Source: Flaccisagitta enflata (taxonomy: Eukaryota). Taken from it: a DNA stretch of 64,000 nucleotides. The notes beneath the pieces are model-generated. The model had not been told where the DNA came from. It ran no database searches and saw only the letters and a list, made by a program, of their open reading frames with translations. The DNA lies in assembly GCA_965153355.1 (NCBI GenBank), contig OZ231126.1, positions 31,744,001 to 31,808,000 on the forward strand, in the 5' to 3' direction. Position 1 is the stretch's first letter, and the number at the start of each line of letters is the position of its first letter. Shown here piece after piece: positions 10,047 through 62,605 of the stretch. The translations under genes were made by a program, and so were the position numbers.

Positions 10047-29877
<19,831 letters not shown>

Positions 29878-30251
29878 TTTTCTTTTCGAAAATGGCCGAT
29901 AAATTTAAAAAGAAAGTTTTGTAAGTAGTATCAAAATATTCGTTTAGAATGAACCCGATTGATATTTATTATTACGGTCAAATGATCCCTAGTTGGGGAC
30001 AAAATGAAGAAGTTTCAACGAAAGCGGACAAGACATGTCATAAAGATAGGAGAGAAATAAACAACAAACAGAAATCGGCAAGGGAGGGGGAAGGAAGGGA
30101 AAGAAAGCTCTTCACACGCTCGAAAAGGCTATGGTTTCATCCATGTAAATACTGAGCTGCTTACGCACGACAGAAAAAAAACTTAAAGCGCCACTAGCGT
30201 TAATAAAACTCATAAATCAAAAGCTGAGATTACAGCGAGGAACAAACTTAC

Positions 30252-37139: not shown

Positions 37140-37830
37140 CACAGTGCTTGTTTAGGCCACTCGACAAAGTTTATTTCACCAGACTGTCACCGACCCCCTA
37201 AATCCACCCAAATCACCTACACAGTGCTTGTTTAGGCCACTCGACAAAGTTTATTTCACCAGACTGTCACCGACCCCCTAAATCCACCCAAATCACCTAC
37301 ACAGTGCTTGTTTAGGCCACTCGACAAAGTTTATTTCACCAGACTGTCACCGACCCCCTAAATCCACCCAAATCACCTACACAGTGCTTGTTTAGGCCAC
37401 TCGACAAAGTTTATTTCACCAGACTGTCACCGACCCCCTAAATCCACCCAAATCACCTACACAGTGCTTGTTTAGGCCACTCGACAAAGTTTATTTCACC
37501 AGACTGTCACCGACCCCCTAAATCCACCCAAATCACCTACACAGTGCTTGTTTAGGCCACTCGACAAAGTTTATTTCACCAGACTGTCACCGACCCTAAA
37601 TCCACCCAAATCACCTACACAGTGCTTGTTTAGCCACACAAGTTTATTTCACCAGACTGTCACGACCCCTAAATCCACCCAAATCACCTACACAGTGCTT
37701 GTTTAGGCCACTCGACAAAGTTTATTTCACCAGACTGTCACCGACCCCCTAAATCCACCCAAATCACCTACACAGTGCTTGTTTAGGCCACTCGACAAAG
37801 TTTATTTCACCAGACTGTCACCGACCCCCT
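37140..37830 (+). repeat. 80-bp tandem array of the left terminus (9 heptamer-bearing units)
   Basis: Same unit; starts at 37140, 37220, 37300, 37380, 37460, 37540, 37618, 37691 and 37771; two units carry small deletions. Confidence 0.95.
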
Positions 37831-38021: not shown

Positions 38022-39124
38022 CACCGTGTTGCCTAGCTGTGATAGGTAGGAAAAAATGACACAGCATAGCGACCTATTCTGGGGTGTTATATACACCTAG
38101 ACTGATATTCCCCTGCATGAGACTAAAAATTCTGTTGGGATTTTTCCGAGAAAACGCCGTAAAATGCCGTAATTTCCCGTAAAATTGACATTTTTTAGCG
38201 TTTTTCAGCCAATACTTGCTCAAAAACTGCGGCTCTGGTCAGCAAATGGTCTGACAATTACAATTTAGCACTGAGACACGTTCATGCAAAAATTTAAGTC
38301 AAGCGGAAATCATTTAGTATCATTTTACGCCGTAAAATGCCGTTAAAATAGCAATTTTAAGCGTTTCTTGGGTGTCACTCTCAAATAGCAGGAATTGACT
38401 TGAGAACTGACAGAGAAAGGGTATCAGGGCTTAAAACAAACATATATATCGAACTTTTGTCATATAATGTCAGGATTTGGTGACATATCATGCCGTAAAG
38501 CGCCGTTAAGTACTGTTAAAATGACATTTTTGGGGTAATAATTGCTCATACAACTGCTCCACTTTTAAGAAACAAACAAACTAGGATATTTGAAACCGAG
38601 ACACATTCTATTCAATTTGTCATCATTTGGCATAGTTTCATGCCCAAAAAATGCCGTTAAAATGCCGTCAAAATAGTATTTTTGACAATTTTTGGGTGAC
38701 ACCCTCTCATATAGCACGCATAAACACTAAATGTGCCAGAAAATGGAAAGTTAGATGTACTGACATCATAGATTCAAAACAATGAGTTGATATAAAATCA
38801 TATCCTTATGCCATAAATAACCGCTAAGTGCCGCTTATTCATCAGAGAAAGACTGTCGTAAATTCTTGGAAATGAAAATAACAAAGAAGTGGTACCCAGC
38901 TACAAGGCTAAAATATTACCAGTTATTGAAAATTAGGATTCCCTAGTCTTGGGAATAGTTCAAATATTTGCGCAATTTGATGCTAGAACATTTTCTACAT
39001 TACCATTTCAATCATTCAATACACAACCTAGAGAGTAAAAAGATACAACCTGGAAAATAGGGCTAAATACAGCTTAATATTTACGACAGAAAAAGTCCAA
39101 TGGTCATTTTTTGCAGCTTCTAAG

Positions 39125-39200
<76 letters not shown>

Positions 39201-39434
39201 GAGCGTGTACGTGTGTGGGTGTGTGTGCGTGTACGTGTGTGGGTGTGTGTGCGTGTACGTGTGTGGGTGTGTGCGTGTGTGTATGTGTGTTACTGTATCA
39301 TTGTGTAAATGTATGAAAGTGCTTTTGCATGGACGCACTAACACGCATGTTTTCCAGAGCATTATTGTGTGTATGTACGTGCATGCGTGTGTGTGTGCCT
39401 GCATGCGTGTGTGAATGTGTGCGTGTGTGAATGT

Positions 39435-39509
<75 letters not shown>

Positions 39510-40419
39510 GAAATTAAAGGACGCATCTAATAGTAATAACCGCCAAATAAAATATTTTCCCATTTCACGGTGTTTTATGGTCATTTTAGTATTTTACAGT
39601 CTTTTACGGCATGTAAATGTGAAGTTATCACAACACTTTGTGTTGAAGCCTTCATCTAAATGTATCTCAGGATCTACCATCCTTTTTTAGGCATTTTAGA
39701 AGAATTGCCACACAATATAATGAAATAACACCCAAAAGTCAGTAAAAAAACCATTTATCATTTTTACGGCATTTTGTACGGCATGAAATGATGCTGAATG
39801 ATGACGGCTTGCTTTGAGTTTTTTTAAGAGTGTCTCTCGTTGCCACAAATACTAAGTTTTATCAGGTTAATCATTGTTGAGCCAGTATTACTCAAAAGAA
39901 TGCCAATTATGCCATTTTTACGGCATTTTACAGCATTGACGGCATTTTACGGCTTTGCAATGTGACCAAATACAACAATATTATGTGGAAGTTGAGCACA
40001 TGTGCGTTTTAGGCCCCAATTCCCATTTCCTGGCAGTTTTTAAGACCATATCCTATAATATGGAAGAGCAACACTTAAAATCAGTCAGAAATGTCATTTT
40101 AACGGCATTTAACGGCGTAAAATGATACCATATGACGTCTGCATGACTTGAATTTTTACATGAATGTGTCTTAGTGCTGAATTGCAATTGTCAGACCATT
40201 TGCTGACCAGAGCCGCTGTTTTTGAGCACGTTTTGGTTGAAAAACGCTCAAAAATGTCAATTTTACGGGAAATTACGACATTTTACGCGTTTTCTCCAAA
40301 ATCCCAACAGAATTTTTAGTCTCATGCAGGGGAATATCAGTCTAGGTGTATATAACACCCCAGAATAGGTCGCTATGCTGTGTCATTTTTTCCTAGTTAT
40401 CACAGCTAGGCAACACGGT
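38022..40419. mobile_element. Nested long-TIR element inside copy 2
   Basis: Same sequence as 20153-22479; flanks agta(c)/agtac. Confidence 0.8.
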
Positions 40420-41901
40420 GAGTACTAAGGATGACAATGTTGTACAACTTTCTTTTTTCTTTTGAAACATTGGTTTCTTGACTTTTATGACTTTTTTACT
40501 GACTACTGTATGCAAACTGGATTTTGAAGAACTAAAGCCTTTTATCATGAGCGTCCTTGCACATTGATAACATGTTGTGTCCATCCATCGGTCTTTCTGT
40601 AAGTCTGTCTGCCAGTGGGCAAACGTACGGATTGTGGAGAAGCGAGAAGCGCCCCCTCTTGGAAGCTGAGTGACAGCGTCGTCAAGTCTTGAAATAAAGA
40701 TATGAGAAAAATGAAGTTTTCTTTGGTTGATCAGTTTTATAGTTATCCTGAATCATTTTTCTCTATTTAAGGAAAAAATAACCTAAAATTTGTGTTGGTG
40801 TCTCATGAATCTATTATCTAAGAGTATTTGTTGTCAAAATTTGTCATATTTTTAGTCGCGTGCTACGCGACTCTACACCATATGTTGGTCCGTCGGTCGG
40901 TCGGTCGGTTGGTCGGTCGGTCGGTCCCCTCTTTACTTTTTTGGCGTTTTTGAGCTTTTTGGGTCTACTGCTCCTGCCCAAATGCTCTTGTGACTTTCTC
41001 CTGCACTGCTCCTGCCCACCCGCACGCGACTGGGGTAGCCGTGAATCGGCCTTGTTTTTCAAAAAATTACCATTTGAGACAGACTCCTCATGTCAGAACC
41101 TTTTAGGGGAAAATCTTTGCTTCCCAGTAGTAAAGAAAAATCTCTTTGTCTGCCAGTAGGTTGGTCTGTTGGTCAGAAGGTAGGACTTAACAAGGCCGGA
41201 TACACGACTACCCTAGTCGCGTGTGGGTGGGCAGGGGCAGTGATGAAGATAGTCACTGGGGCATTTGAACAGGAGCAGTAAGCTCAAAACGCTCAAAAAC
41301 ACCAAGAAATTAGATGGGGACCGACCGACAGACAGACGGTTGGATGGACGGACAAAGCGGGGTGTAGAGTCATGTCGCGTACCACGCGACTAAAAATTAT
41401 TTTTACTTTGAAGGCTCATCTCCGAGTTTTTAGTCCGTGTTTTTAGACACTACACCCCGCTTTGTCCGTCGGTCGGTCGGTCGGTCGGCCGGTCCCCATT
41501 TTACTTCTTTTATGTTTTTGCGGTCTTTGGCCTCACTGCACTTGCCCAAGTGCTTTAGTAACTCAAATACTGCCCCTGCCCACCCGCACGCGACTAAGGT
41601 AGCCGTGTATCCAGCCTTGTTAGTCGCGGACACGCGACTCTACACCTTGCTGTGTCGGTCGGTCGGTACGTCGGTACATTACGATTTTTTTTAATTCCGA
41701 GCGGTTTACGCATTACTGCTCCTGCCCAACCGTCCGCGACTGGATTACCGTGTATCCGGCCTTGTTTTTCTGCTTATGGCACTTTGCGAAAATCATAATA
41801 AGCCGTTGGAAAAGGATCCAGGACAAAATTGAACTGGTTTGTCATACAATATGGATTGAAGAAGCTTTTTATCACTTTGGGAATTAAAATGCACACAATC
41901 C

Positions 41902-43444: not shown

Positions 43445-46400
43445 GTAGAGACATGAAATTTGGTATGGAAAGTCAGTGGGGGAATACTTTTGAGGCCATC
43501 AGAGGGTTTTTTTCAATTTCCGCCCCTGAGCGGGGATATGGGGGCGGGGGTTGGTTATTTCTTTTCGCCCTTTTCAGCTAATATGGAGTGGCTAATTTTA
43601 AGACCCTTACTAGTTTTCTTTTATCAAGAATCATTCATCTTCCGTTTGTTAGAAAATTGTTTTTTATGACCTAATTTGCATAATGCAGTGGGATAAAACA
43701 ACATACTGACATAGTTTGAATTAGTTTCTACAAATTTCTACTCTTCATGGAATTGTAATTCTGCCTTTTTATAAGCGGTTTTATAGCTTATGCTCTGATA
43801 TTTTAGTTAATTTTTACAAACATCATAATTTTTTGAAACAAAGAATTTTTCTTTTTGTAACAAAACTACACAGGATTCTGCTGAATTCTGGGAAATCTGT
43901 GGGAACAAAACAAAACAAAAACGGAAGATGAGATGAAGAAAGGAAAATGGTCATCTTCATAATTTTTGCTCCTCCATATCACCTCAGTAGGGTGAAAGGA
44001 TACTGCCAACTTAGTCAAATCTAGTTCATACCATAGAAAATGTACAATAGCATGGGGGATCATGGTAAAAAATGGTCGGAGCCTTTACGTTCAGGAGATG
44101 TTCGCACCATTTCATGGTATAATGCACCAAAAAAAATTTGGAGGTCTTCCGATATCGGGAAGATGGCGCCGCCACCCCCCCCCCCCCTGAGTAAAACTGT
44201 GGTGGTGCAACAATTCTTGTTGTTTAAGGTCATTTCAACCTCAAAATTCGGCCACTTTGCCTTAGCAAAATGACAATAAATCCATAAGATTATAAAACTA
44301 TAGAGTTCAAGAGCTAACCAGTGGTGCAATCTGCATGTTTCTATCATAACCGGCCAAACCAGCTCTACCACCCAACCAGCCTACCAGCCTAAAAGTGAAA
44401 AACGTGCATAACTTTGGCATTTTAAAACCAATTTGGTTGAAACTTGGTATGTGGTCTCCGACTGGAAGGACTAAACATATAAATTCGATTTATAAAGATT
44501 TTAGTATGCTAACCGGCCAAACCAGCCTACCACCTAACCAGCCTACTAGCCTAAAAGTGGCATTTTTAAATTGATTTGGTTGAAACTTGGTATGTAGTCT
44601 CTGAACGGAAGGACTAAACATATGAATTCGATTCATAAAGATTTTTACATGCTAACCAGCTAAACTGGACTACCACCCAACTAGCTTACCAGCCTAAAAG
44701 TGAAAAAACTTGCATAACTTTGTCATTTTTCAATTGATTTGGTTGCAACTTAGTATGAAGTCTCAAAATGGAAGGACTCAACATATGTATTTGATTTGTT
44801 AAGATTTTAGCATGCTAACTGACCAAACCAGCCTACTACCCAACCAGCCTACCAGCCTAAAAGTGAAAAACCTGCATAACTTTGGCATTTTTCAACTGAT
44901 TTGGTTGAACCTTGGCATGTAATCTCTAGATAGAAGGACTCAACATATGAATTTGATTTATAAAGATTCTAGCATGCTAACCAGCCTACCACTCAATGAA
45001 CCTACCACCTTCAAAATGATAAATGTGCATAACTTGAACAATTTTCAATCAATTTTGTTAAAACTAAAAACTTGGTATGCATACTCAAAATGAAATGACT
45101 TGATGTACGTATGCGACCAAAGCAGCTTACCTCTCAACCACGCCTTTGGCAACGCCATTTGACAATGCCATTTGACAATACCAAGTTGATTGGAAATTGT
45201 TCAAGTTATGCACATTTATCACTTTGAATTTGGTAGGTTGGTTGGGTGGTAGGCCGGTTTGCATGCTTAAATCCTTATAAATCAAATTCATATGTTAAGT
45301 TCCTCCATCTAGAGACTATATACCAAGTTTCAACCAAATTGGTTGAAAAATGCCAAAGTTATGCAGGTTTTTCTCTTTTAGGCTGGTTAGGTGGTAGGCC
45401 AGTTTGGTCGGTTAGCATGCTAAAATCTTAACAAATCAAATACATTTGTTGAGTTCTTCCATTTCGAGACTTTATACTAAGTTTCAACCAAATCAATTGA
45501 AAAATGACAAAGTTATGCACATTTTTAACTTTTAGGCTGGTAGGCTGGTTGGGAGGTAGTCCAGTTTGACCAGTTAGCATGCTAAAATCTTTATAAATCG
45601 AATACCTATGTTTAGTCCCTCTATTCAGAGACTTCATACCAAGTTTCAAACAAATCAATTGAAAAATGCAAAAGTTATGCACGTTTTTCATTTTTAGGCT
45701 GGTTGGGTGGTAGGCCAGTTTGGTCAGTTAGCATGCTAAAATCTTAACAAATCAAATACATATGTTGAATTCTTTCATTTCAAGACTTTAAATTAAGTTT
45801 CAACCAAATCAATTGAAAAATGACAAAGTAATGCACGTTTTTCACTTTTAGGCTGGTAGGCTGGTTGGGTGGTAGGCTGGTTTGGCCGGTTATGATAGAA
45901 ACATGCAGATTGCATCACTGGTTAGCTCTTGAGCTCTAGTTTTATAATCTCATGGATTTTTAGTCATTTTTCTAAGGCAAAGTGGCCCAATTATGATGGC
46001 AAAATGATCTTAAACAACAAAATTTGTACCACCACCACCACTTTACTCAGGGGGGGTGGCGGCGCCATTTTCCTGACATCGGACGACCTCCAAATTTTTT
46101 TAGTGCAAAATACCATGAAATTGTGCGCACATCTCCTGAACATAAAGGCTCTGACCATTTTTTGCCATGAACCCCCGTGCAGGCCGTGCTAATGTACAAA
46201 GAATACTGAATTATTCTTGAAATTTGAAGAGTTATGCACTTTTGAACGTTAAAACAAATCATTTAAAAAAATAAAAAATCCTGGTAAAATCACAATCAGA
46301 ATTTTACGATAGTTTAAAGTTTCTATGCTTATTAGAGCCTAATACAACATTTCCGATTGAAAAAATCCAAAATTAAAAAAAAAAATTGAGATTTTTTCAA

Positions 46401-46522
46401 TCCTCGGTGGTTACCCCATCCCACCCCAATATCCCCGCTCAGGGGCAGAAATCGAAAAAACCCTCTAATGACCCCGAAAGTATTCCCCCACTGACTTTCC
46501 ATACCAGGTTTCATGTCTCCAC
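43445..46522. repeat. ~3.1-kb foldback with inverted arrays of the ~151-bp repeat
   Basis: gagacatgaaatttggtatggaaagtcagtgggggaatac vs gtattcccccactgactttccataccaggtttcatgtctc; inner arms ~44040-45100 vs ~45180-46200. Confidence 0.8.
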
Positions 46523-46680
46523 TTTAAGTAGTTAGGGCTGTAGGGTATGGTGTATGGATTAGAAGGTGACATATAGCATTTCATAATCCATCCGAACATG
46601 TAATCACGTTCGGATTGTATATCATTATCAAACAAGCCAATTTCACGTAAAATCATTGAGGCCAACTAATGCGTGAAAAC

Positions 46681-46990
46681 CGTGGACAGGAGAAGACTTG
46701 CCGCGCGATGCCGCCGCAGTGACAGCGGCAGACGGTTTCGAAGTCGACGCCGCCGCGGTCGAAGGCTTGGTATTCATGCGGCTGGAAGGAGTCGGCGGCG
46801 GTTTAGAAATCTTGGATGATTTGTCCTCTGGAAGCGGCTTACGTGGCGGGAAAAAGGCCTCCTTGAGAACGGAAATTCCCGTTGGCAAATGGCCCGTTGG
46901 GGCGGGGATGGAGGAGGAAGTGGGCTGATCGACGGCCCGTTTGGAGACGAATCGCTTTGTGTAACCGGAATCGCCCATGGATGGCATCAT
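46681..46990 (-). CDS. Pro/Ser/Thr-rich exon, probable first coding exon of the RRM-like gene
   Basis: Acceptor tttcatag| at 47036-47037; ATG at 46990; GC-rich coding-like ORF; phase-1 donor CAC G|GTTTTC fits the phase-1 acceptor at 35728. Linkage across the ~11-kb TE-filled intron is inferred. Confidence 0.5.
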
Positions 46991-48017
46991 CAGTTGCCGA
47001 TCATCATTTGATTCCGAATCGGAATTTCCGATGTGCTATGAAAGACACTTTTCATGTGGACCGATCTGCTCGAAAAAATTGGTTGAAAAGTATAGTAAAA
47101 TAAAACTTTCTTGTTAAATAAAATTGACAATTTGCTCTCCATTTATCTAGAAAAACAAAGACCCATCAATGCCAGCTACCTTCCCCCAGCCCTGAATTTA
47201 TCAGACGGTGTCTATACGAACAAATTTCATTGCAAAATACACGATGGATGAAAAAGGGAAGAGTAAGAGAAATCCTGAAATTTAGAATGTCGATCAATAA
47301 AGCAAGGGAAAAAGCATCATGATCATGATTGAGAGAAGAAGAGGTGACGATGATGATGACGGTTAGGGACCTGACATCGATGAAACAGATGAAGAACGAT
47401 AAAAAAGCTAAAATGAACCGGGCTTCCAAAAAGTTCTAAAATCACATGCGTACAATGTGAGAATGGTAATAATTGACGATTACAATGGAGAAAACCGACG
47501 ATGGCTAAATCATGATGAAAATACATCTGGAACTAATCGCTAAAGTCGCTCTGAAGTCAATATTCAGATCATAAAGAGTGGGCGGTACGCGTTATGCTTA
47601 TTACTGACTGAAAACTATGACTCAAGTTGAAGAGAGAGACGATAAAAGATCAAATTCCTCGTGGAAAACAAGAAAAAACGATTCTAATAGACTACAAGTA
47701 CAAGTACGAGACCCGGATGATAAAATGATGAAACGGAAATAAAACATCCACACATTGAAAAGGTAGAGGTAGATTCAAAATGGATATGAGTTGAAAAGAC
47801 GTCGCCATGGCTTTAGATCAAAAAGTAATACTGACAAATTTATCCACTGATGCGCAAACTCATACCACATGAGAGAGAGCAAGAATGTTTTAAAAAACCA
47901 CTGGATATCATTTATAAATTTCTTTTCATACGAATTTTGATTTGCCTTATCATTTCAAAAGCGACGTTTACAGATTAAGGATATCTGGCAAAAGAGAATC
48001 AAAATTCAAAAACCGAG

Positions 48018-51000
48018 TCACGGCGATGGCGATGGCGGAAACGACGGAGGTTGGCCTCGATCTACAACCGCGTTTCTCGATTGGCCTCGATCGGCAGCCG
48101 TGTTGCTTGATTGGCTTCGATCGGCAGCCGCGTTGGTCGGTTGGCCTCGATCGGCAGCCGCGACGGTTTCGGAAATGACTCGCCGACGATCGTTCCAGTC
48201 GGAAAATCGACGGACCAAAGTGGACATACGTCGGAACGGAGCTGGCGCCGAAGCGGCCGGGGCGCTGTTTGACCCGGACGCTTGACGAGGCGGCGGAGCG
48301 GCGGCAGCGCCGAGTTCATCATCGGCTCCCGCGGCCGGCTGTGCCGCTTCATTGGCAGCTGAAAGGAGAGTATCCATCATGTAAAGTATGACTACAGATG
48401 TTACATTGAACGGGACAATGTTTTTCTTGTCGTATTTCAGAAATGCCTAAGATCAGTCAAAAGTCAAGACGTGGGTAAAATCGTCGCCGAAAAAAGTCCC
48501 GTTTATTCAGTCTAAGGTCATAAATCAAAGACTCACCGGGTCGTCTTTCATCGCCTACAAAGAGTGCCTCAATTTCGTCGGCGATCCTGCAGAGTTCGAC
48601 GCCGATTCGACGCGCCATCGGATGTTGAGCGTCGAAACGCAACGGCAAAGAAACGCGCCGATCCGCCACCGAAAAATGCACCGGCAAATCAAAAGACGAT
48701 CGTCGCTCCGAACTGGAAGAAGAATCACGTGATCTGACTTTTTTTTTTTTGCTGCGATTTGAGGTTTCTTTTCAGTCGCGTGCACGCAACTCTGCAACCC
48801 GCTCTTTCAGTTGGTCCGTCAAACTTTACTTTTTTTTCATTACATTAAGTCATTTTAGGTCGTTTTAAGTCATCTTGAGTCATTTAAAGTCAATTTGGGT
48901 CCTTCTTAGTTATTTATGTCCCGTAAGCGACTTTGTGTTTGCCTTGTTCTTTCTAACGGAAGTGAATTTTCAAGAAATCAACATCAACAAACAAATGAGC
49001 CCAACTAGGGTTACCACGAAAATACTACGACCTACCGTGGAACAACATCCGGAAGATTGCTTGCAGACTGAACCAATCTCGGCGGCGTCAAAGATTCCGC
49101 TTCCGCCGCCTCTGCCGCCTCCGCCGCCTCCACGATCACCAAAGAATCGTCGTCGTCAGAATCAAGATTCTCGATGGCAGCAACCGGCACTCGATCTTGA
49201 TCTTGACAGAGAGGAAGTGACAATTAGAGACCTTGTCATCTTGGTTACGTAATGGGAAGTGGCAAATCATCACCATGATTGAGATAGAGATAAAAATAGA
49301 CAATTAGGAATTTTGATGTTAGATTGAGTGGCAAGCTATAACGTGATTGAGAGAAAGCGGCATTTTGATTGAGAAGAAACATTTGGCAAATTAGGACCTT
49401 GGATGAGAGGAACATGAGCGACGAATTCATCGTCAAGGCGTGGCAAACTCGCGTTTCGACGAGAGGGAGCGCTGACATCGTCGCTTCCCTGCGGCTGTGC
49501 CGCTTCCACGATCGCGTCATCGCGACTGTCGTGAGTGCGAGGCAGCGCCGCGTTGGCGCTGCGAGAGCCAGTCGGCGCCACGGCGTTGGAACGATCGCAA
49601 ATATGCGCCGTTTGCTCGTGGATGCCGACAAAGACTACAGCGCAATTGCCGCAAACGAGAGGCGCAGCCGCCGAAAACGCGACTTCGTCGTGGTTTTGCC
49701 GCAACGCCGAAGCTCGGGCTGTCGGGAGACGCGGTGACGCCGCGTCGGTGGAATGATCGCAAATGTGAGCGACGCCCTCGAGGAATAGCGCGCAATCGCA
49801 GCGCACAATTCTCGTAGAAGAGGAAGACCTTAAGTCGGAAGATTTGAAGAGGAGAGTCAACAAGAAATATTGACGAAAGATTGAGTTGGCGACTTCGACG
49901 GATAGATTAAAGCGCAATTACTAAATCATGGAATCACAAATCTATTAACACTGTCAATGATGCTGTATTTGAAATCAGTCTGTATGGATGTCAAACAGGG
50001 ATGTATATAGTTCTAAGATCTTTGATTAATTTTCCCCCCCTGCCTTTGATTTTCTCCCCCGCAATGTGTCGCGTCGCGTTACAAAATCTATGGTTTTCCT
50101 CCCCATATGACAATAAAACAGTGTTTTTAAGGTTTAAATAGTGTTCAATTGGGTCACGTTAGCAATGTCAATCCGTGTCTTATATTTTAAAGTGTTTTTA
50201 AGCGGGTAATATTTAGGGTTAGGGATGAGGTAAGGGTTAGGGATGGGGTGAGTTTTAGGGTTAGGGTGGGGACTAGGAGTAGGGTTAGGGCCAGGTGTAG
50301 GTTTGTGTTTATATTTTTTAGCACGAGTAAGCTTGAATCGAACATTTGCCCTAACAAGAAAAAAACTAGTGACGGGATTGAATTCCCTAACATTACCTTT
50401 AATTGTGTTTTACTAATTTAGTTTTTATGATTTGGTACTGCCAAAAGTTTATTTTTCCCCAATTTTTTTTCTTCTCTTTTTTCCCCCTTACATTTTTTTC
50501 CCCATCTCCAAACCCTTTGATTATTGGAATGTTGAACAATATACAGGCCTGATATCAAAACATGAGAGAGCTTGATTTGACTATGTTGGGAGATAACAAA
50601 AACAGTTGCATTGCCCCATGATTTTTTTTCTAGAACTAACCAACGGGAAGGCGAAGAAGAAGTGGAGGAAGCATGGAGGAAAGATGAGGAAATGGACGAA
50701 GAAGAAGCGTGGAGGAAACTCGTTCGGTGCCAGGCAGTCAGACTGCTGCCCAACGGCGGGCGATGCGGAGAGGAGTAGCCAGGCACAAATATCACGGGCC
50801 TGCATCGTCCAAGTTCGGGAGGAAAGGATGGAGAGATTCAAGTGGAGTAATGGAAATCACACAATTCACGTTATGATTTGATGGCACCCGCAGTCCGCCT
50901 GAGCCAACTACACAAGACAATCAAAGCCCCCCCCCCCGTGAGGAAAACCCTTCACCCACACGGACAATTGAACCAAAAATATCAGCACATAAATAATACA

Positions 51001-52160
51001 AGATTGTCTAACCTGCGATCTGGCGTGACCGCGTCTTCTTGACAATTGCTAAGCCGGAACTGCCGGCGCGTGGAATCGCGTCTGGTTGAGCGCGGATTGT
51101 CAGCGCCGAAATCCGCCTCCTCCTCTTGACCGACCACCGACTCGGCAACCGGAACATCGTCTTCATCAACGTCGTCGTCGTCATCTTCTTGATCGGTCAT
51201 GCCCGGCGTTCCTTCGAAATTCTGCCTACGTCCGGGAATAGGGATCGAAGGTGATGTGGATTTCGTCGATTTGGCCGTTAGAGGTACGCAGAGTGAGCCT
51301 CCAGCGTCGGCGACACAAGACGCGCGGTACCTGTCGTCTCGCTCGGCGACGTGTTGAACGCAGAGTGAACCACCATTATTCTTTGATCCGCCCGGAGGGT
51401 GATGAGGCCCGCGCAATGCGCCCCTCGCGTTGGCGTCTAGAATCTCGACCGAATCATCGAAGCCATCTCCTCGCGCGTTGACTTCATCATGGTCGGCACC
51501 GACGCGTTTGAGACGATGCCTTTCATCGACTCGACTTTTTAGCACCGGTTCCGCGGCGTCAGCTTCCTCGTCATTCTCGTCCGCCGACGCGAATGAAAAA
51601 GTGGGGAGATTGACGCCGGACTTTCGACGTCGACTTAGCGCCGCGTCTTCGCTCAGCTGCTTTTTCGTCGTCGGCAACGGCGGTGGAGGCGTTTCATTCG
51701 GAGATGGCGGCAACTGATAGCGGAAACCGGAAGCGCCTTCCGTCGAATCCTCGTTATCGCCCCACAGAATACGAGGACGCGGCGGCGACGCCGAAAAGCA
51801 GCCAGAAGAGCCGACGCGGAAGCCGGCCCTAATGCCATAATCGGCTGGTGAAACCGGCGTCAAGGCGACTGAGGGAACTTCCATGACGGCGCCGCGACGA
51901 TCTTGACGAAATTGGTCTTCATCCGTTCGGTTGGAATGGGACCGATGATTGGACCGGTAATCGGACTGTACTTCGGCGGAGAACCCTACCCCGCTGTCGC
52001 ACCGACGACCACCGCCGGTGGAGGAAAACGAGGCCGATCGGCAAATCTTTTGTTTCCGCGGCGGAATGGGAATCGAAGGAGAGCGCATCGACGGAGAGCC
52101 GGAAAACGACTGCCTACTCGCGGGTGGAGTCGAGTTATTAATGAAAAACTGATCGCACAT
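48018..52160 (-). CDS. ~817-aa intrinsically disordered protein with BH3-like motif (candidate BH3-only protein), 6 exons
   Basis: Exons 52160-51013, 50799-50641, 49828-49398, 49201-49036, 48712-48537 and 48391-48018 join by GT-AG with phases 2,2,1,2,1 (2454 nt, no internal stop); motif IGVELCRIADEIE at 48606-48568. The gene model is better supported than the functional call. Confidence 0.7.
49996..50551. mobile_element. hAT-type MITE containing a TTAGGG-like tract
   Basis: CAGG...CCTG ends; flanks ATGTCAAA/ATATCAAA (7/8 TSD); related sequence at ~5120-5400. Confidence 0.65.
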
Positions 52161-52481
52161 CTCTCCTTTTTCGAAACAAAATGACAACCAACGACCGGAG
52201 ATGACAAGATGGGATAGATTGTAATGCTGAGTTTAAGAGACTATTGCACTATGGTCTGGAAGTGGCTAAATCTGAGACAAAACCTAAAGATTGACAATAA
52301 TGATTATAATGAATACAACAATAAAGAAAAAAAATTTAAAAAAAGATTTTTCTTCATTTTTCGGGTTTTTATTTTTTTTTTTGTCATTTATTCGTTAACA
52401 AATTAATGTAACAGCGCAGACAACATTTCACACGTAGAGAGAAAGAGAGAAAGAGAGAGAGAAAAAAAAAAAAAAAATAGG

Positions 52482-52690
52482 TTACAGTGCAGCTAGGTTG
52501 ATAAGGACAGGGTTGCGTGTTTTAGCTAAACTGCGAAGAAAAGATTTTTGGCGTTCAGAAAAAATTTCAGTGATCGACTTATAACCAAGTGATTGTCGTA
52601 AGTAACGTGTGCTTTCCCATCTGTTAAACGAGAAAATCTTTCGAATACAATCATTTAAGGCTACATCCATCCGTGTCATCTCACGACCAG
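52482..52690 (-). pseudogene. 3' end of the same LINE ORF
   Basis: GREMTRMDVALNDCIRKIFSFNRWES...*; joins in frame to CEIKRFS at 61968. Confidence 0.75.
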
Positions 52691-53469
52691 GAAATTTCCC
52701 TCCTATATATTCTTTGTTGAGTGGAGACGTTATGAGTCGCGCTTGGAGACGCAACCCGTCCCCATTGAATAACATGGGAAACTCTTATTTTCTTTTTGTC
52801 TCTGATATTCGAGCATCCATGATAAGATTTTTTCTTTGGCACAAATTCATCTGGACTGCAAAAAAAAATAAAGCGCGTTCATTTCCCTAGTGGTTAAACT
52901 CGTGACACTTAGAAAACCTTTTAAAATGCCTGTGACAGTAAGAAAACCATCTTGGCAGCATGATGGAGAGGAGGCTTATAGATAGTCCCTAACATGACGC
53001 TGCCTAAGAATTCGTAGTTATTTTCTCTGTGTCTCCGCATGATATTTTTCAAAATGTAACGATTGACGCTAGGAAAACAAGCGAGAGGACAAGACTGGAA
53101 CAATCATAAATGCTTTCTTCACTGAGACGACTGAATAATCTTGTCAACAACATTGATAGGGCAAATCAGTGTCAAAAATTCTTAGTGGAGATTCAACTGC
53201 CGCTGCTGGTCAAACGAGTGGGCGATCATTACGTCCAAGGAAATGATGTTTCCCGATCCCGCTGTCAAACTTTGACCGTGAATGTCATCATTTGTTTGAT
53301 AGATATTTGTTAGTTTCATTGCATATCATTAAGAGGATTCGTCTTACGTGTTATCGAGAGAAGTAGAAAATGTAAACATAGATTGTCTCTTTGCTGACTA
53401 TTGCCGTTGGCCAGTTTTCAAAGAATATGCCATGTTGAAGTCAAAGTGGGCCTAAATTTTTTTACCTTT

Positions 53470-56400
53470 TTACTTTCTGGTGGTCTCCAACTCTTTCCTC
53501 ATTTTCTGTCTGTCTCCATCATCATCCTCATTATTATCTGTCTCTATCTTTCTCCTCATTATTATCTGTCTCTATCTTTCTCCTCATTTTCTGTCTGTCT
53601 CTATCTTTCTCCTCATTTACTGTCTGTCTCCATCTTTATCCTCATTTTCTCTGTGACTCCATCATTATCCTCGTTTTCTCTCTGTCTCCATCTTTCTCCT
53701 CATTATCTATTGGTCTCTATCTCTATCCTCATTATTTATCTGTCTCTATCTTTCTCCTCATTTTCTGTCTGTCTCCGTCTTCATCTTCATTTTCTGTCTG
53801 TCACTATATTTTTCCTCATTTTCTCACTGTCTCTATCTTGACAGATAAAGATGGAGACAGACGAAAAATAATGATAAAGTTAAAGACAGCCAGAAAATGA
53901 GGATAGAGAAGGAGACAGACAGAAAATGAGGATAATGATGGAGACAACCAGAAAATGAGGGTAGAGATGAAGACAAACAGAAAATGAATATGGGCAGAAA
54001 CCGGGGAAAAAGATGGAGAGAGACAGAAAATGAGGGAAAAGATGGAGGCAGGCAAGCAGGAATCAATCCTCTGTGATCTGAGCCAAGGTAAAAATCTTAC
54101 CTTCCCGAGACCCTCAACCCTAGGGTAAGACCCCAGGGTCAGAGCCTCAACCCAGTTTACTTTTAAGTTCATCCCCTGAGGAGAGTATCATCCAAAACAG
54201 CGACTGAGCCACCTCACAAATTTTGTCAGAACATGGGTGAGTCCTAATAAGGTGAAGACTGGTGACAAGAGGGGCTAGCGGGGTTAACTCATATGTTAAG
54301 CCGGTTTCAGCTGTTCTCCAGATCAACACCCCAATTTCACCAAAAGCCCCTTATATATATCCATATATATATATGTAGGCTTACCACAGAGAAACAGAGT
54401 GATCCTCTGCAGATAACAAGTAAAAATGGTTTACAATGTTTTTCAACCCCGCTAGCCCCTCTTTCAACCCTTCTGATCATTTTATGGATGTCTCTTATGT
54501 ACATTTGGCTAGCTGGTGAATTTGTGAAGTTTGAATTTTATGTTTGTCTCCACTTCTATCCTCATAATCTATCCATCCCTATCTTCTTCATTGTTTTTTG
54601 TTTGTCTCCATCTTCATCCTCATTTTCTGTCTGTCTCCATCTTTATCCTCATTTTCTGTCTGTCTCCATCTTTATCCTCATTTTCTGTCTGTCTCCATCT
54701 TTATCCCCATTTTCTGTCTGTCTCTGTCTTTTTCTTTGTTTTCTGTCTGTCACCATCTTCCTCATTTTCTCTCAGTCTCTATGTATGAGGAGACTTACAA
54801 AAAATGAAGGTAAAGGTAGAGACAGCCAGAAAATGAGGACAGAGATGGAGACAAACAGAAAATGAAGGAAAAGGTGGAGATGGGCAGAAAACAAAGAAAA
54901 AGATGGAGACAAATGGAAAATAGAAAGAATGATGGACCAATGAGCAGAAACTTCGGCTCCATCTTATAAATGGTAATATGTCTGAGATTTGAGCCAAGGT
55001 AAAAATCTTACCTTCCCAAGACCCTCAACCCCAAGGCAAGACCCCAAGGTCAGAGCCTCAACCCAGTTCACGTTTAAGTCCATCCCCTGTGGAGAGTACC
55101 ATCTAAAACAGCAACTGAGCCACCTCACAAATTTTGTCAGAACATGGGTGTGTCCTAATAAGGTGAAGACTGGTGACAAGAGGGGCTAGCGGGGTTAACT
55201 CATATGTTAAGCCGGTTTCAGGTGTTCCCCAGATCAACACCCCAATTTCACCAAAAGCCCCTTATATATATATCAATATATATATATAGGCCTACCACAG
55301 AGAAACAGAGAGATCCTCTGCAGATAACAAGTAAAAATGGTTTACAATGTGTTTCAACCCCGCTAGCCCCTCTTTCCACCCTTCTGATCATTTTATGGAT
55401 GTCTCTTATGTACATATGGCTAGCTGGTGAATTTGTCAAGTTTAAATTTTTTGTTTGTCTCCATCTCTATTCTCATAATGTATCCATCCCCATCTTCTTC
55501 ATTGTTTTTTGTTTGTCTCCATCTTCATCCTTATTTTCTGTCTGTCTCCATCTTAATCCTCATTTTCTGTCTGTCTCCATCTTTATCCTCATTTTCTGTC
55601 TGTCTTCATCTTTGTCCCCATTTTCTGTCTGTCTCTGTCTTTTTCTTTGTTTTCTGTTTGTCACCATCTTCTTCCTTTTCTCTCAGTCTCTATGTATGAG
55701 GAGACATACAAAAAAATGAGGATAAAGGTAGAGACAGCCAGAAAATGAGGACAGAGATGGAGACAAACAGAAAATGAAGGAAAAGGTGGAGATGGGCAGA
55801 AAACAAAGAAAAAGATGGAGACAAACAGAAAATAACAAGGCCGGATACACGGCCATCAGTTGCGGACGGGTGGGCAGGGGCGGAAATGCAACTGTCCGCA
55901 ACTGAAAATGTTCTAAAACGCTCATTTCCTCACTTTTCGACTCGTGTCCACGGACCGACCGACGGACCGACGGACCGACCGACCGACCGACGGACGGACA
56001 AAGCCTCTTATAGAGTTGCGTGTCCGCAACTAAAAAGAATGATGGACCAACGAGCAGAAACTTCGGCTCCATCTTATAAATGGTAGTTTGTCTGAGATCT
56101 GAGCCAAGGTAAAAATCTTACCTTCCAAAGACCCTCAATCCCAGGGTAAGACCCCAGGGTCAGAGCCTCAACCCAGTTCACTTTTTAGTCCATCCCCTGT
56201 GGAGAGTACCATCTAAAACAGCGACTGAGCCACCTCACAAATTTTGTCAGAACATGGGTGTGTCCTAATAAGGTGAAGACTGGTGACTAGAGGGGCTAGC
56301 GGGGTTAACTCATATGTTAAGTCGGTTTCAGGTGTTCCCCAGATCAACACCCCAATTTCACCAAAAGCCCCTTATATATATCCATATATATATGTAGGCT

Positions 56401-59400
56401 TACCACAGAGAAACAGAGAGATCCTCTGCAGATAACAAGTAAAAATGGTTTACAATGTGTTTCAACCCCGCTAGCCCCTCTTTCAACCCTTCTGATCATT
56501 TTATGGATGTCTCTTATGTACATTTGGCTAGCTGGTGAATTTGTGAAGTTTGAATTTTATGTTTGTCTCCACTTCTATCCTCATAATCTATCCATCCCTA
56601 TCTTCTTCATTGTTTTTTGTTTGTCTCCATCTTAATCCTCATTTTCTGTCTGTCTCCATCTTAATCCTCATTTTCTGTCTGTCTCCATCTTTATCCTCAT
56701 TTTCTGTCTGTCTCCATCTTTATCCCCATTTTCTGTCCGTCACTGTCTTTTTCTTTGTTTTCTGTCTGTCACCATCTTCCTCATTTTCTCTCAGTCTCTA
56801 TGTATGAGGAGACTTACAAAAAATGAGGATAAAGGTAGAGACAGCCAGAAAATGAGGACAGAGATGGAGACAAACAGAAAATGAAGGAAAAGGTGGAGAT
56901 GGGCAGAAAACAAAGAAAAAGATGGAGACAAATGGAAAATAGAAAGAATGATGGACCAATGAGCAGAAACTTCGGCTCCATCTTATAAATGGTAATATGT
57001 CTGAGATTTGAGCCAAGGTAAAAATCTTACCTTCCCAAGACCCTCAACCCCAAGGCAAGACCCCAGGGTCAGAGCCTCAACCCAGTTCATGTTTAAGTCC
57101 ATCCCCTGTGGAGAGTACCATCTAAAATAGCGACTGAGCCACCTCACAAATTTTGTCAGAACATGGGTGTGTCCTAATAAGGTGAGGACTGGTGACAAGA
57201 GGGGCTAGCGGGGTCAACTCATATGTTAAGCCGGTTTCAGGTGTTCCCCAGATCAACACCCCAATTTCATTAAAAGCCCCTTATATGTATATCAATATAT
57301 ATATATAGGCCTACCACAGAGAAACAGAGAGATCCTCTGCAGATAACAAGTAAAAATGGTTTACAATGTGTTTCAACCCCGCTAGCCCCTCTTTCCACCC
57401 TTCTGATCATTTTATGGATGTCTCTTATGTACATATGGCTAGCTGGTGAATTTGTCAAGTTTAATTTTTTTGTTTGTCTCCATCTCTATTCTCATAATGT
57501 ATCCATCCCCATCTTCTTCATTGTTTTTTATTTGTCTCCATCTTCATCCTTATTTTCTGTCTGTCTCCATCTTAATCCTCATTTTCTGTCTGTCTCCATC
57601 TTTATCCTCATTTTCTGTCTGTCTACATCTTTGTCCCCATTTTCTGTCTGTCTCTGTCTTTTTCTTTGTTTTCTGTTTGTCACCATCTTCTTCCTTTTCT
57701 CTCAGTCTCTATGTATGAGGAGACATACAAAAAAATGAGGATAAAGGTAGAGACAGCCAGAAAATGAGGACAGAGATGGAGACAAACAGAAAATGAAGGA
57801 AAAGGTGGAGATGGGCAGAAAACAAAGAAAAAGATGGAGACAAACAGAAAATAAAAAGAATGATGGACCAACGAGCAGAAACTTCGGCTCCATCTTATAA
57901 ATGGTAGTTTGTCTGAGATCTGAGCCAAGGTAAAAATCTTACCTTCCAAAGACCCTCAATCCCAGGGTAAGACCCCAGGGTCAGAGCCTCAACCCAGTTC
58001 ACTTTTTAGTCCATCCCCTGTGGAGAGTACCATCTAAAACAGCGACTGAGCCACCTCACAAATTTTGTCAGAACATGGGTGTGTCCTAATAAGGTGAAGA
58101 CTGGTGACAAGAGGGGCTAGCGGGGTTAACTCATATGTTAAGCCGGTTTCAGGTGTTCCCCAGATCAACACCCCAATTTCACCAAAAGCCCCTTATATAT
58201 ATCCATATATATATATGTAGGCTTACCACAGAGAAACAGAGAGATCCTCTGCAGATAACAAGTAAAAATGGTTTACAATGTTTTTCAACCCCGCTAGCCC
58301 CTCTTTCAACCCTTCTGATCATTTTATGGATGTCTCTTATGTACATTTGGCTAGCTGGTGAATTTGTCAAGTTTAAATTTTATGTTTGTCTCCACTTCTA
58401 TCCTCATAATCTATCCATCCCCATCTTCTTCATTGTTTTTTGTTTGTCTCCATCTTAATCCTCATTTTCTGTCTGTCTCCATCTTAATCCTCATTTTCTG
58501 TCTGTCTCCATCTTTATCCTCATTTTCTGTCTGTCTCCATCTTTATCCCCATTTTCTGTCCGTCTCTGTCTTTTTCTTTGTTTTCTGTCTGTCACCATCT
58601 TCCTCATTTTCTCTCAGTCTCTATGTATGAGCAGACTTACAAAAAATGAGGATAAAGGTAGAGACAGCCAGAAAATGAGGACAGAGATGGAGACAAACAG
58701 AAAATGAAGGAAAAGGTGGAGATGGGCAGAAAACAAAGAAAAAGATGGAGACAAATGGAAAATAAAAAGAATGATGGACCAATGAGCAGAAACTTCGGCT
58801 CCATCTTATAAATGGTAATATGTCTGAGATTTGAGCCAAGGTAAAAATCTTACCTTCCCAAGACCCTCAACCCCAAGGCAAGATCCCAAGGTCAGAGCCT
58901 CAACCCAGTTCACGTTTAAGTCCATCCCCTGTGGAGAGTACCATCTAAAACAGCAACTGAGCCACCTCACAAATTTTGTCAGAACATGGGTGTGTCCTAT
59001 TAAGGTGAGGACTGGTGACAAGAGGGGCTAGCGGGGTTAACTCATATGTTAAGCCGGTTTCAGGTGTTCCCCAGATCAACACCCCAATTTCATTAAAAGC
59101 CCCTTATATGTATATCAATATATATATATAGGCCTACCACAGAGAAACAGAGAGATCCTCTGCAGATAACAAGTAAAAATGGTTTACAATGTGTTTCAAC
59201 CCCGCTAGCCCCTCTTTCCACCCTTCTGATCATTTTATGGATGTCTCTTATGTACATTTGGCTAGCTGGTGAATTTGTCAAGTTTAAATTTTTTGTTTGT
59301 CTCCATCTCTATCCTCATAATGTATCCATCCCCATCTTCTTCATTGTTTTTTGTTTGTCTCCATCTTCATCCTTATTTTCTGTCTGTCTCCATCTTAATC

Positions 59401-61830
59401 CTCATTTTCTGTCTGTCTCCATCTTTATCCTCATTTTCTGTCTGTCTCCATCTTTATCCCCATTTTCTTTCTGTCGCTGTCTTTTTCTTTGTTTTCTGTT
59501 TGTCACCATCTTCCTCCTTTTCTCTCAGTCTCTATGTATGAGGAGACATACAAAAAATGAGGATAAAGGTAGAGACAGCCAGAAAATGAGGACAGAGATG
59601 GAGACAATCAGAAAATGAAGGAAAAGGTGGAGATGGGCAGAAAACAAAGAAAAAGATGGAGACAAATGGAAAATAAAAGGAATGATGGACCAACGAGCAG
59701 AAACTTTGGCTCCATCTTATGAATGGTGATATGTCTGAGATCTGAGCCAAGGTAAAAATCTTACCTTCCCAAGACCCTCAACCCCAGGGTAAGACCCCAG
59801 GGTCAGAGCCTCAACCCAGTTCACTTTTAAGTCCATCCCCTGTGGAGAGTACCATCTAAAATAGAGACTGAGCCACTTCACAAATTTTGTCAGAACATGG
59901 GTGTGTCCTAATAAGGTGAAGACTGGTGACAAGGGGGGCTAGCGGGGTTAACTCATATGTTAAGCTTGTTTCAGCTGTTCCCCAGATCAACACCCCAATT
60001 TCACCAAAAGCCCCTTATATATATCCATATATATATATATAGGCCTACCACAGCTGGAAAATGAGGACAGAGATGGAGACAATCAGAAAATGAAGGAAAA
60101 GGTGGGAATTGGCAGAAAACATAAAAAAAGATGGGGACAGACGGAAAATAAGGAGAATGATGGACCAATGAGCAGAAACTTACTCCTTCATCTTTTAAAT
60201 GGTGATATGTCTGAGATCTGAGCCAAGGTGAAAATCTTACCTCCCCAAGACCCCCAACCCAAGGGTAAGACCCCAGGGTCAGAGCCTCAACCCAATTCAC
60301 TTTTAAGTCCATCCCCTAAGGAGAGTACCATACAAAACAGCGACTGAGCCACCTCACAAATTTTGTCAGAACATGGGTGTGTCCTAATAAGGTGAAGACT
60401 GGTGACAAGAGGGGCTAGCGGGGTAAACTCATATGTTAAGCCTGTTTTAGCTGTTCCCCAGATCAACACCCCAATTTCACCAAAAGCCCCTTATATATAT
60501 ATCCATATATATATATAGGCCTTTAACAGAGAAACTGAGAGATCCTCTACAGATAACAAGTAAAAATGGTTTACAATGTGTTTCAACCCCGCTAGCCCCT
60601 CTTTCAACCCTTCTGATCATTTTATGGATGTCTCTTCTGTACATTTGGCTAGCTGTGAATTTGTCAAGTTTAAGTTTTTTGTTTGTCTCCATCTCTATCC
60701 TCATAATCTATCCATCCCCATCTTCTTCTTTATTTTTTGTTTGTCTCCATCTCAATCCTCATTTTCTGTCTGTCTCCATCTTAATCCTCATTTTCTGTCT
60801 GTCTCCATCTTAATCCTCATTTTCTGTCTGTCTCCATCTTCATCCTCATTTTCTGTCTGTCTCCATCTTTATCCCCATTTTCTGTCTGTCTCTATCTTTT
60901 TCTTTGTTTTCTATCTGTCACCATTTTCTTCATTTTCTCTCAGTCTCTATATATGAGGAGACATACAAAAAATGAGGATAAAGGTAGAGACAGCCAGAAA
61001 ATGAGGACAGAGATGAAGACAAACAGAAAATGAAGGTAAAGGTGGAGACAGACGGAAAATTAAGAGAATGATGGACCAATGAGCAGAAACTTAATCCTCT
61101 ATCTTATAAATGGCAATATGTCTGAGATCTGAGCTAAGGTGAAAATTTTACCTTCCCAAGACCCTCAACCCCAGGGTCAGAGCCTCAACCCAGTTGACTT
61201 TCAAGCCCATCCCCTAAGGAGAGTACCAACCAAAACAGCGACTGAGCCACCTCACAAATTCTGTCAGATCATGGGTGTGTCATAATAAGGTGAAGACTGG
61301 TGACAAGAGGGGCTAGCGGGGTTAACTCATATGTTAAGCCTGTTTTAGCTGCTCCCCAGATCAACACCCCAAATTTACCAAAAGCCCCTATATATATATC
61401 CATATATATATATAGGCCTACCACAAAGAAACAGAGAGATCCTCTAAAGATAACAAGTAAAAATGGTTTGTAATGTGTTTCAACCCCGCTAGCCCCTCTT
61501 TCAACCCTTCTGATCATTTTATGGATGTCTCTTTTGTACATTTGGGAAGCTGGTGAATTTTTCAAGTCTTGATTTTCTGCCTAGCTCATCAAATGTTTTT
61601 TATTTGACTCTTTGCTGAGAATTGACTAAGTAAGACAGGATATGAGGACAAAGATAGAGACAGACAGAAAAGGAGGATAGAGATGGAGACAACTAGAAAA
61701 TCTGTAATCACCAGATGGACAGAGACAGACAGAAAAAAAAAGGATAATGATGGAGACAGCCTGAAAAGGAGTATGTAGATGGAGACAACCAGAAAATTAG
61801 GATAGAGAGGGAGACTGACTGTAGTCACCG
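53470..61830. repeat. ~911-bp macrosatellite (8-9 monomers, A/B alternation, internal ~30-bp subrepeats in both orientations)
   Basis: Marker gagccaaggt(a/g)aaaat at ~54080, 54991, 56101, 57010, 57922, 58833, 59743, 60220 and 61131. Confidence 0.93.
55834..56031. mobile_element. Short HINE/DINE-1-like element inserted in a satellite monomer
   Basis: aacaaggcc start, (gacc/gacg)n core, terminal hairpin agttgcgtgtccgcaact; absent from sister monomers; no TSD. Confidence 0.85.
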
Positions 61831-61967
61831 TGGAGACATCCAAAAAATATCCAAAGAGCCATGCAGAAAACCTGGACTTAGCAAATTCAACTCTTCCTAT
61901 TTCCGCAAATTTTCTGAAGGGCTCCGGCAAATTTTCTGAGGGGCTCCGGCATTGTCAATTTTCTTAT

Positions 61968-62605
61968 AGAAAATCTCTTAATTTCACAACAATAAGTCAT
62001 CAAAGGGACGCAATTTGTGTACAGAAGCTGCATTTGTACAAGTTCACTAGGACCGTGTAATACATTAAGAATCGTGTTCGCGCTACAATGAAAGTTTGAG
62101 AGAGGTTTTCTGCTAGAGCATGAAAAGTCTTTTCCGGCCACAACGTTTACGCCAAGATATTTGCACTCATCAACTTTTACTATCGGCGTTTCGTTAAGAA
62201 GCAATGGAGAATGTTCAACGCTTTTACCAAAAACCATAACATTTGTTTTAGCAGGATTGTATGAAATACACCATTGAAGTCCGTATGCATAACAAATATT
62301 CAAAAGTTTCTGAAGGGATGATCTTGTGGGGGCCAGTAATGCTAAGTCATCTGCATACATAATAGCTGCTATAAACATATCAACTATGTGACAACCAACA
62401 CCTGATTTTCTTAAAGCACCAATTAAATCATCTACATAAAGAAGAAACAATCGTGGACTTAAAACACCACCTTGACGCACACCAGAGGTAACGGCAAAGC
62501 TTCTGCTTAAGACATTATTCCATTTCACCACACTCGATAAATTTCGATACCAATAGATTATCACATTAAGCAAGCATAGAGGTACTCCTCTTTGTAAAAA
62601 ATGTC
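61968..62605 (-). pseudogene. Non-LTR retrotransposon (LINE) reverse transcriptase fragment, 5' piece
   Basis: VTSGVRQGGVLSPRLFLLYVDDL, IMYADDLALL and YLGV motifs. Confidence 0.92.

Follow-up and report, generated by a model that had tools for sequence, protein, structure and literature searches.

An expressed candidate BH3-only gene with a conserved, predicted BH3-like helix in Flaccisagitta enflata

The gene analysed here lies on the minus strand of a 64,000-nucleotide stretch of the Flaccisagitta enflata genome (assembly GCA_965153355.1, contig OZ231126.1, positions 31,744,001 to 31,808,000), which we refer to as the window and in which positions are counted from the first letter. One of its exons, at 48537-48712, encodes a segment that resembles the BH3 motif of BH3-only proteins. 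Such proteins are stress sensors of mitochondrial apoptosis and are almost undetectable by homology search. According to the available portions of the respective reports, the phylum Mollusca had yielded none (PMC5550854), searches spanning the protostome branches were unsuccessful (PMC8998228), and the first fly BH3-only protein, Sayonara, was reported only in 2023, showing that arthropods have such proteins (PMC10107002). Judged by title or opening of the abstract, a crustacean BH3-only protein does not appear among the literature matches listed. The initial annotation of the window, made from its letters, had proposed that exon 48537-48712 contributes a BH3 motif to a low-complexity, disordered protein of about 817 amino acids.

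Four public RNA runs were mapped onto positions 45500-53500 of the window, namely X1, X2 and X3 (marine metatranscriptome, two studies) and X6 (polyA). X1, X2 and X3 contain contigs that are 95-100% identical to the window and have five introns removed. Record 3 of X1 (3377 nt) comprises the segments 51012-52246, 50639-50798, 49398-49826, 49036-49195, 48537-48712 and 47262-48358, and the same joints are backed by records 4 and 5 of X2 and record 10 of X3. All five introns read CT..AC on the plus strand, which corresponds to GT..AG on the minus (coding) strand. The gene is expressed and spliced, with six exons within the window, and its joints are confirmed by spliced contigs in three of the four runs; X6 yielded 11 reads, each of which fits in part, and provides no evidence either way. 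After joining of the exons by script, the open reading frame (ORF) spans 804 amino acids, or 806 if the alternative acceptor at 49201 is used, so that the length predicted at first was close without being exact. The frame starts with an ATG at 52160-52158, is preceded by an in-frame stop in the same exon and terminates at the stop codon 48018-48020. The peptide HPMARRIGVELCRIADEIEALF derives from a minus-strand frame that is open between a polypyrimidine-AG acceptor and a GTGAGT donor. Both the limits of this exon and its reading frame are identical in the RNA contigs to those given by the initial annotation.

These transcripts bear on the explanation that the frame arose by chance or through an assembly artefact and is no real coding feature. 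The lack of any Pfam family, the low-complexity composition of the protein and the 11 partly fitting reads of X6 would be in line with it. However, the five GT..AG introns are absent from contigs of three runs and two studies, which retain a single long frame, and spliced relatives of the protein, described below, preserve this frame together with its conserved island. We therefore regard a chance or artefactual origin as extremely improbable.

The first exon visible in the window (51012..52246, minus strand as for all exons) encodes amino acids 1-383; it is covered by RNA pieces, is delimited by the joint 50798/51012 and contains an N-terminus that aligns with that of P0128, a 442-amino-acid relative. 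The exon at 50639..50798 (approximately amino acids 384-436) is defined by the joints 49826/50639 and 50798/51012 in X1 and X2 and carries the motifs F/YVP...SLT-WH...SSSPS-W, which are conserved in the alignments. It is followed by a Cys/His exon (49398..49826, approximately amino acids 437-579), supported by its joints and corresponding to a gap in the relatives, and by an acidic exon (DSDDDDSLVIVE..., 49036..49201), for which the acceptor is either 49195 (X1, joint 49195/49398) or 49201 (X2 and X3, joint 49201/49398), the latter adding two residues. The BH3-like exon (48537..48712, approximately amino acids 634-691) contains the whole conserved module. Its joint 48358/48537 was found in X1, X2 and X3 and its joint 48712/49036 in X1 and X3; the corresponding joint of X2 lies at 48711, with one letter between. 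The last exon (47065..48358; record 3 of X1, record 4 of X2) encodes the C-terminal tail from 48358 to 48021, followed by the stop codon and a 3' untranslated region (UTR) of roughly 1 kb. At the other end, the transcripts extend in 5' direction beyond 52246. This loose end is absent from the window at up to 3 mismatches and is taken to be a further exon more distant upstream, outside the window.

Two further RNA signals were observed around this gene on the minus strand. Past the mapped 3' end, positions 46568-47101 show a low RNA-contig depth (1.7-4.3; X2 and X3) over an open frame of 130 amino acids (46646-47035), which may reflect an extended 3' UTR or an independent small transcript. Furthermore, a degenerate CCCTAA-type (TTAGGG-like) repeat occupies positions 50200-50330 of the 812-bp intron. 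The contig depth is locally high there, probably owing to other copies of the repeat.

Relatives of the protein were collected with a word-seeded search using the 58-amino-acid exon, which gave 5 matches among 47 candidates, and with a profile search, which gave 13 matches among 8000 scored candidates. The relatives, none of which is named or has a Pfam domain, form about five sequence groups and are approximately 44-60% identical overall. The first group (P0001, P0002 and P0132) consists of unspliced ORFs from the same or a very close organism, and the second (P0133) and third (P0134) are genomic ORFs of two further relatives. Groups four (P0003, P0004, P0005, P0129 and P0131) and five (P0127, P0128 and P0130) include longer members that resemble spliced transcripts, namely P0003-P0005 in the former and P0127 and P0128 in the latter. 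P0128 begins with a methionine and its N-terminus aligns with that of the window protein, and we therefore treat it as a full-length relative.

In the alignment of eight sequences, 24 columns are invariant and form one block, which reads R-x-x-S-x-P, two residues, F-D-A-x-H-P, x, A-R-x-I-G-x-E-L-C-R-I-A-D-E-I-E-A-x-F (exon residues R18, S21, P23, F26, D27, A28, H30, P31, A33, R34, I36, G37, E39, L40, C41, R42, I43, A44, D45, E46, I47, E48, A49 and F51). Over the whole length, the window protein and P0128 share 191 of 430 aligned residues (44%), and the best-conserved stretch of 20 amino acids is the helix discussed below (amino acids 663-682, 19 of 20 identical). The helix is thus the conserved island that the initial annotation suggested looking for in relatives. 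The second-best island, RSPSIPIPPRKQKICRSASF (amino acids 26-45, 52026..52085, minus strand), is identical in 18 of 20 positions and contains an R-S-x-S-x-P site. The alignments reveal no counterpart in the relatives for the Cys/His exon 49398-49826 and the C-terminal tail. In the window gene, the whole conserved module is located on a single exon. A similarly compact exon is plausible in P0133 and P0134, whose open frames reach beyond the invariant block on either side, by 29 and 49 residues, respectively, ahead of the R-x-x-S-x-P site and by 23 and 19 residues past the F that closes the block. A scan of metagenome contigs with the conserved island gave 474 pattern matches, of which one (L001) was confirmed. 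It turned out to be a false positive, an out-of-frame stretch within a bacterial dehydrogenase-like ORF, and hence added no relative.

Next, we analysed the architecture of the protein. In agreement with the low complexity and disorder noted at the outset, 68% of the residues of the window protein are A, R, G, Q, S, P, E, K or D. No Pfam family was detected at E <= 10 in the six exons or at E <= 1 in P0128, P0004 and P0127. The protein therefore has no Bcl-2 domain, and the annotated lack of BH1 and BH2 extends, by Pfam in the six exons and the three relatives, to BH4 and the Bcl-2 fold. Among the window ORFs scanned with Pfam, there was likewise no Bcl-2 gene. With the exon alignment A4 as input, AlphaFold2 predicted a single amphipathic helix comprising exon residues 31-52 (48556..48621, minus strand), with a predicted local distance difference test (pLDDT) value of 94 for the blocks covering residues 31-50 and disorder in the remainder. 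The model of P0128 (14 aligned rows) has a mean pLDDT of 48.5, with 307 of 442 residues below 50, and contains no globular domain. Its sole predicted secondary-structure element is a helix at residues 395-424 (pLDDT 85-95), which is the equivalent of the exon helix. P0128 also lacks a hydrophobic stretch suited to anchoring it in a membrane. By helical hydrophobic moment, the helix region comes second among 787 sequence windows. Taken together, these models suggest that the window protein is disordered except for one conserved helix.

Within this helix, the core IGVELCRIADEI (amino acids 669-680, 48571..48606, minus strand) conforms to the BH3 consensus (hydrophobic-small-x-x-Leu-x-x-hydrophobic-small-Asp-acidic-hydrophobic) at all positions that this defines, as the initial annotation had claimed. 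We expressed the consensus as the strict pattern [ILVMF][GAS]xxLxx[ILVMF][GAS]D[DE][ILVMFY], which is retained in all seven sequences tested. A single occurrence was found in the six frames of the window, compared to a mean of 0.033 in 300 residue shuffles of their translation, and the pattern arose in 6 of 20000 shuffles of the 804-amino-acid protein. In a scan of many windows, strict matches are expected by chance, and the weight of the argument therefore rests on conservation.

The helix was also compared to all PDB chain sequences. The exon alone gave three matches at E <= 10, two of which are BH3 peptides of PUMA (2vof_B and 2roc_B, E 0.69) that align in register with the core and are identical in 10 of 21 residues. 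Using profile A3, built from eight sequences, PUMA peptides came first (E 0.11). With profile A4, built from five short sequences, PUMA BH3 peptides occupied the top six positions (E 0.0059-0.055), and eight of the ten matches were BH3 peptides. In the ESM Atlas, P0128 was most similar to a nameless, mostly arthropod cluster (0.85); its named neighbours were clusters of BMF, Bim and PUMA (0.76-0.81) and, as the one other, PXT1 (0.75). The exon alone was placed near a BAK fragment, BMF, PXT1, Bim, Noxa and PUMA (0.77-0.85). All Atlas scores lie below the 0.9 line of the tool and are leads only.

A second conserved element adjoins the helix. The invariant R-x-x-S-x-P site, RRVSLP in the window protein (48643..48660, minus strand), ends with a proline located 12 residues ahead of the first hydrophobic position of the BH3-like core. 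Its residues R18, S21 and P23 are invariant in all eight aligned sequences, and the pattern was found in each of the seven sequences tested, in the variants RRVSLP, RRSSLP, RRASLP, RRASVP or RPFSAP. A second site, RSPSIP, is present in all four longer sequences, and a related SPSIPIPG copy is found at amino acids 302-309. By comparison with the mode-1 consensus for 14-3-3 binding, the serine is a candidate phospho-serine and 14-3-3 site.

We consider an expressed disordered protein with a BH3-only type of function, possibly switched off in a BAD-like manner by phosphorylation and 14-3-3 binding, to be somewhat favoured by these data. In such a protein, the free helix would dock in the hydrophobic groove of a Bcl-2-fold protein. 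The four hydrophobic anchor positions would be filled by I36, L40, I43 and I47 and the small ones by G37 and A44, and D45 would pair with an arginine of the groove. Occupation of the groove would push the cell in the direction of apoptosis. Basophilic survival kinases could phosphorylate the serine upstream of the helix as well as the second site, R-S-P-S-I-P, and subsequent binding of 14-3-3 might sequester the protein, by analogy to vertebrate BAD. For BAD itself, the accessible part of one report describes Ser112 and Ser136 as lying in 14-3-3 consensus motifs, with phosphorylation promoting 14-3-3 binding and releasing Bcl-XL (PMC1368972). As far as sequence and structure prediction reach, the gene falls within the definition of the BH3-only class and can be listed as a candidate. 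Sequence, expression, conservation and the predicted helix bear out the candidate BH3-only protein of the initial annotation; its role as a pro-apoptotic sensor is what we infer.

Several observations weigh against a BH3-only function. The face of the helix that would not contact a groove is invariant as well (E39, C41, R42, E46 and E48), which could indicate a different partner or a further one. With 804 amino acids, the protein far exceeds the length of classical BH3-only proteins. A looser version of the BH3 pattern is unremarkable (3 matches versus 3.36 expected), and BH3 patterns are described, in the excerpted text of one report, as having little predictive value and producing many false positives (PMC9171138). 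With E-values of 0.69 for the single sequence and 0.006 for the best profile, the PDB matches are of marginal significance and, like those of the Atlas with scores below the 0.9 line, may just re-detect the motif; both sets are not independent of it and therefore constitute support, not proof. The Pfam profiles of PUMA (PF15826), BMF (PF15185), Bim (PF08945) and BAD are matched neither by the BH3-like exon nor by the three relatives. Since all relatives come from one narrow clade, deep conservation cannot be judged from them. Finally, a class-1a and class-3 nuclear export signal (NES) pattern is found within the helix in five of the seven sequences.

This last point bears on the possibility that the helix is a conserved binding or trafficking element with a partner outside the Bcl-2 family, for example a nuclear-export helix that, together with a phospho-regulated 14-3-3 site, determines the cellular location of a disordered signalling scaffold, the fit to BH3 being coincidental. 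The adjacent invariant R-x-x-S-x-P site, a feature typical of shuttling switches, would suit this explanation, as would the invariance of both helix faces, the proneness of BH3 patterns to false positives, the lack of a match to any Pfam BH3-only family and the presence, in a long protein, of further conserved linear motifs that have no relation to proteins of apoptosis, among them the island at amino acids 26-45 (18 of 20). However, a change from Leu to Gln abolishes the NES pattern in P0133 and P0134, while the strict BH3 pattern stays intact in seven of seven sequences. Moreover, the PDB matches are led by BH3 peptides that align in exact register, the named look-alikes in the Atlas belong to BH3 families, and the invariant G37, A44 and D45 would not be needed by a plain amphipathic or export helix. 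We thus consider a partner outside the Bcl-2 family rather unlikely.

The size of the protein raises another possibility, in which a working BH3-like motif modulates Bcl-2 proteins from within a multifunctional scaffold that is no dedicated death trigger, comparable to what is reported for Beclin-1, nesprin-2 or TERT. BH3-like motifs have been reported in large non-apoptotic proteins, according to the consulted sections of two reports (PMC12134178, PMC6078858), and the 804 amino acids of the window protein include a lineage-specific Cys/His exon, an acidic exon and several further conserved islands. The extra exon, however, is missing in the relatives, and P0128 comprises 442 amino acids, all predicted to be disordered but for the helix, and continues for about 30 residues behind it, which corresponds to the architecture of a dedicated BH3-only protein. 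A scaffold of this kind therefore appears very unlikely.

The Cys/His exon itself (49398-49826, minus strand) contains two similar segments, each with C-x(1-2)-C ... H-x-C (RCDCALF…AHICDH and CGNCAVVF…AHICDR) and each followed by a similar Ala/Ser/Pro-rich stretch. This arrangement suggests that a small unit, possibly zinc-binding, was duplicated within the exon. In an exhaustive HMMER search of positions 49399-49824 against 1.84 billion representatives, the only match was P0006, a 99%-identical copy of the exon itself. The exon is lineage-specific and uninformative on the family of the BH3-like protein.

Comparison with established and proposed BH3-only proteins places the candidate closest to PUMA (BBC3), whose BH3 peptides (2roc and 2vof) are the closest sequence matches to the helix and which is likewise a disordered protein with a single BH3 helix. 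Unlike PUMA, the window protein is 804 amino acids long (442 in the relative P0128) and carries an invariant serine/proline site ahead of the helix; the Pfam profile of PUMA is not matched, and nothing similar was seen outside the helix. Based on sequence, the PUMA BH3 comes closest to the helix, and homology to PUMA and convergence are indistinguishable. With BAD, the candidate would share a proposed regulatory logic, since one R-x-x-S-x-P site lies just upstream of the BH3 helix and one further towards the N-terminus, and both would be cytosolic, disordered proteins devoid of a membrane anchor. In contrast to BAD, there is no serine within the BH3 core; no BAD peptide was among the PDB matches at E <= 10 and the Pfam profile did not match. 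BMF and Bim (BCL2L11) are the nearest named ESM Atlas clusters for P0128 (0.76-0.81) and for the exon (0.78-0.84), with all scores below 0.9, whereas neither a Pfam match nor the dynein-light-chain motif or a C-terminal anchor was seen.

Among invertebrates, the available text of one report describes candidate BH3-only proteins of S. purpuratus (373 amino acids) and A. planci (350 amino acids) as disordered, with the BH3 on one exon, and as based on sequence and not validated (PMC8998228). By this description, they resemble the window protein in being long, predicted-disordered invertebrate proteins with the BH3 on a single exon, whereas the window organism groups with protostomes by its vasa gene (see below). 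Sayonara of Drosophila (CG14044) and EGL-1 of C. elegans share with the candidate that they are protostome BH3-only proteins. Sayonara is portrayed, in the part of the report at hand, as a protein of 378 amino acids with a weaker BH3 and with two coiled-coil domains that are needed (PMC10107002). Going by this portrayal, the window protein differs from it in having one predicted helix and a BH3 that fully fits the vertebrate-type consensus. The single helix predicted in P0128 also sets the candidate apart from the Sayonara orthogroup (PTHR21974), whose activity requires coiled-coil domains.

Altogether, the data partly support a credible, expressed candidate BH3-only gene that would represent a new family in an under-sampled protostome lineage. 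It is a transcribed protostome gene with an invariant vertebrate-type BH3-like helix and a conserved, adjoining putative phospho-site, and it yields a concrete peptide and point mutants for assays as well as a profile for searching invertebrate transcriptomes. If the helix binds Bcl-2 proteins, this would bear on whether BH3-only sensors and their control by kinases and 14-3-3 are ancestral to bilaterians or convergent. A more far-reaching proposal, which at present we find unlikely, is that the gene is the founding member of an undescribed protostome BH3-only family that combines a PUMA-like BH3 and a BAD-like double 14-3-3 phospho-switch on one module, in a marine zooplankton lineage adjoining arthropods by vasa. 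If this were true, silencing of a BH3 sensor by survival kinases would not be a vertebrate invention, and the circuit would either predate the split between protostomes and deuterostomes or have arisen twice.

The placement of the organism was derived from the vasa/DDX4 gene, which is located on the minus strand at approximately 10050-29904. Its N-terminal exon encodes seven CCHC zinc knuckles (zf-CCHC, E 2e-54), and the exons of the helicase core lie at 10544-12942 and 27624-27815, separated by an intron of approximately 14.7 kb. No named protein is near-identical to the vasa exon, the best named matches being those of molluscs (73-74%). For the helicase core, named proteins reach 55-60% and three marine sequences 65-68%. 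In a FastTree phylogeny, the window sequence and the three marine sequences group together (support 1.0), next to arthropods (0.966) and within protostomes (0.941). A protostome position adjoining arthropods is thus tentative, as the tree comprises one gene with long branches.

The long vasa intron contains a 22-bp tandem repeat (24689-26167; 67.6 copies, 97% matches), which lacks stop codons in several frames over as many as 532 amino acids and whose unit recurs at 19398-19499. A Pfam match to 'Melittin' within this repeat was rejected as spurious. The initial annotation had placed the BH3-like gene two genes upstream of vasa; four ORFs of 345, 104, 237 and 145 amino acids are located between the two (30454-35356, minus strand). 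They showed no significant Pfam match, the 104-amino-acid ORF reaching DUF222 at E 0.23, which is below the cut-off, and they probably belong to another gene for a disordered protein.

Across the window, no Rfam family was detected. An 80-bp tandem repeat with identical consensus occurs at two places, within the paired segments 19499-19958 and 37140-37830 as well as 21238-23238 and 39123-41156, and both copies have nearly the same ORFs beside them, pointing to either a duplicated segment or a transposable element of approximately 2-4 kb. Positions 53400-61000 are occupied by a long array of repeated units, each containing 29-bp microsatellite-like blocks and recurring ORFs (QEGLAGLTHMLSRFQ…, KPLICISIYIYRPTTEKQRDPLQITSKNGLQCVS…), with no Pfam family among them. 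At 61890-62603 on the minus strand, we observed a reverse-transcriptase fragment (RVT_1, E 5e-17), which is presumably the remnant of a retroelement.

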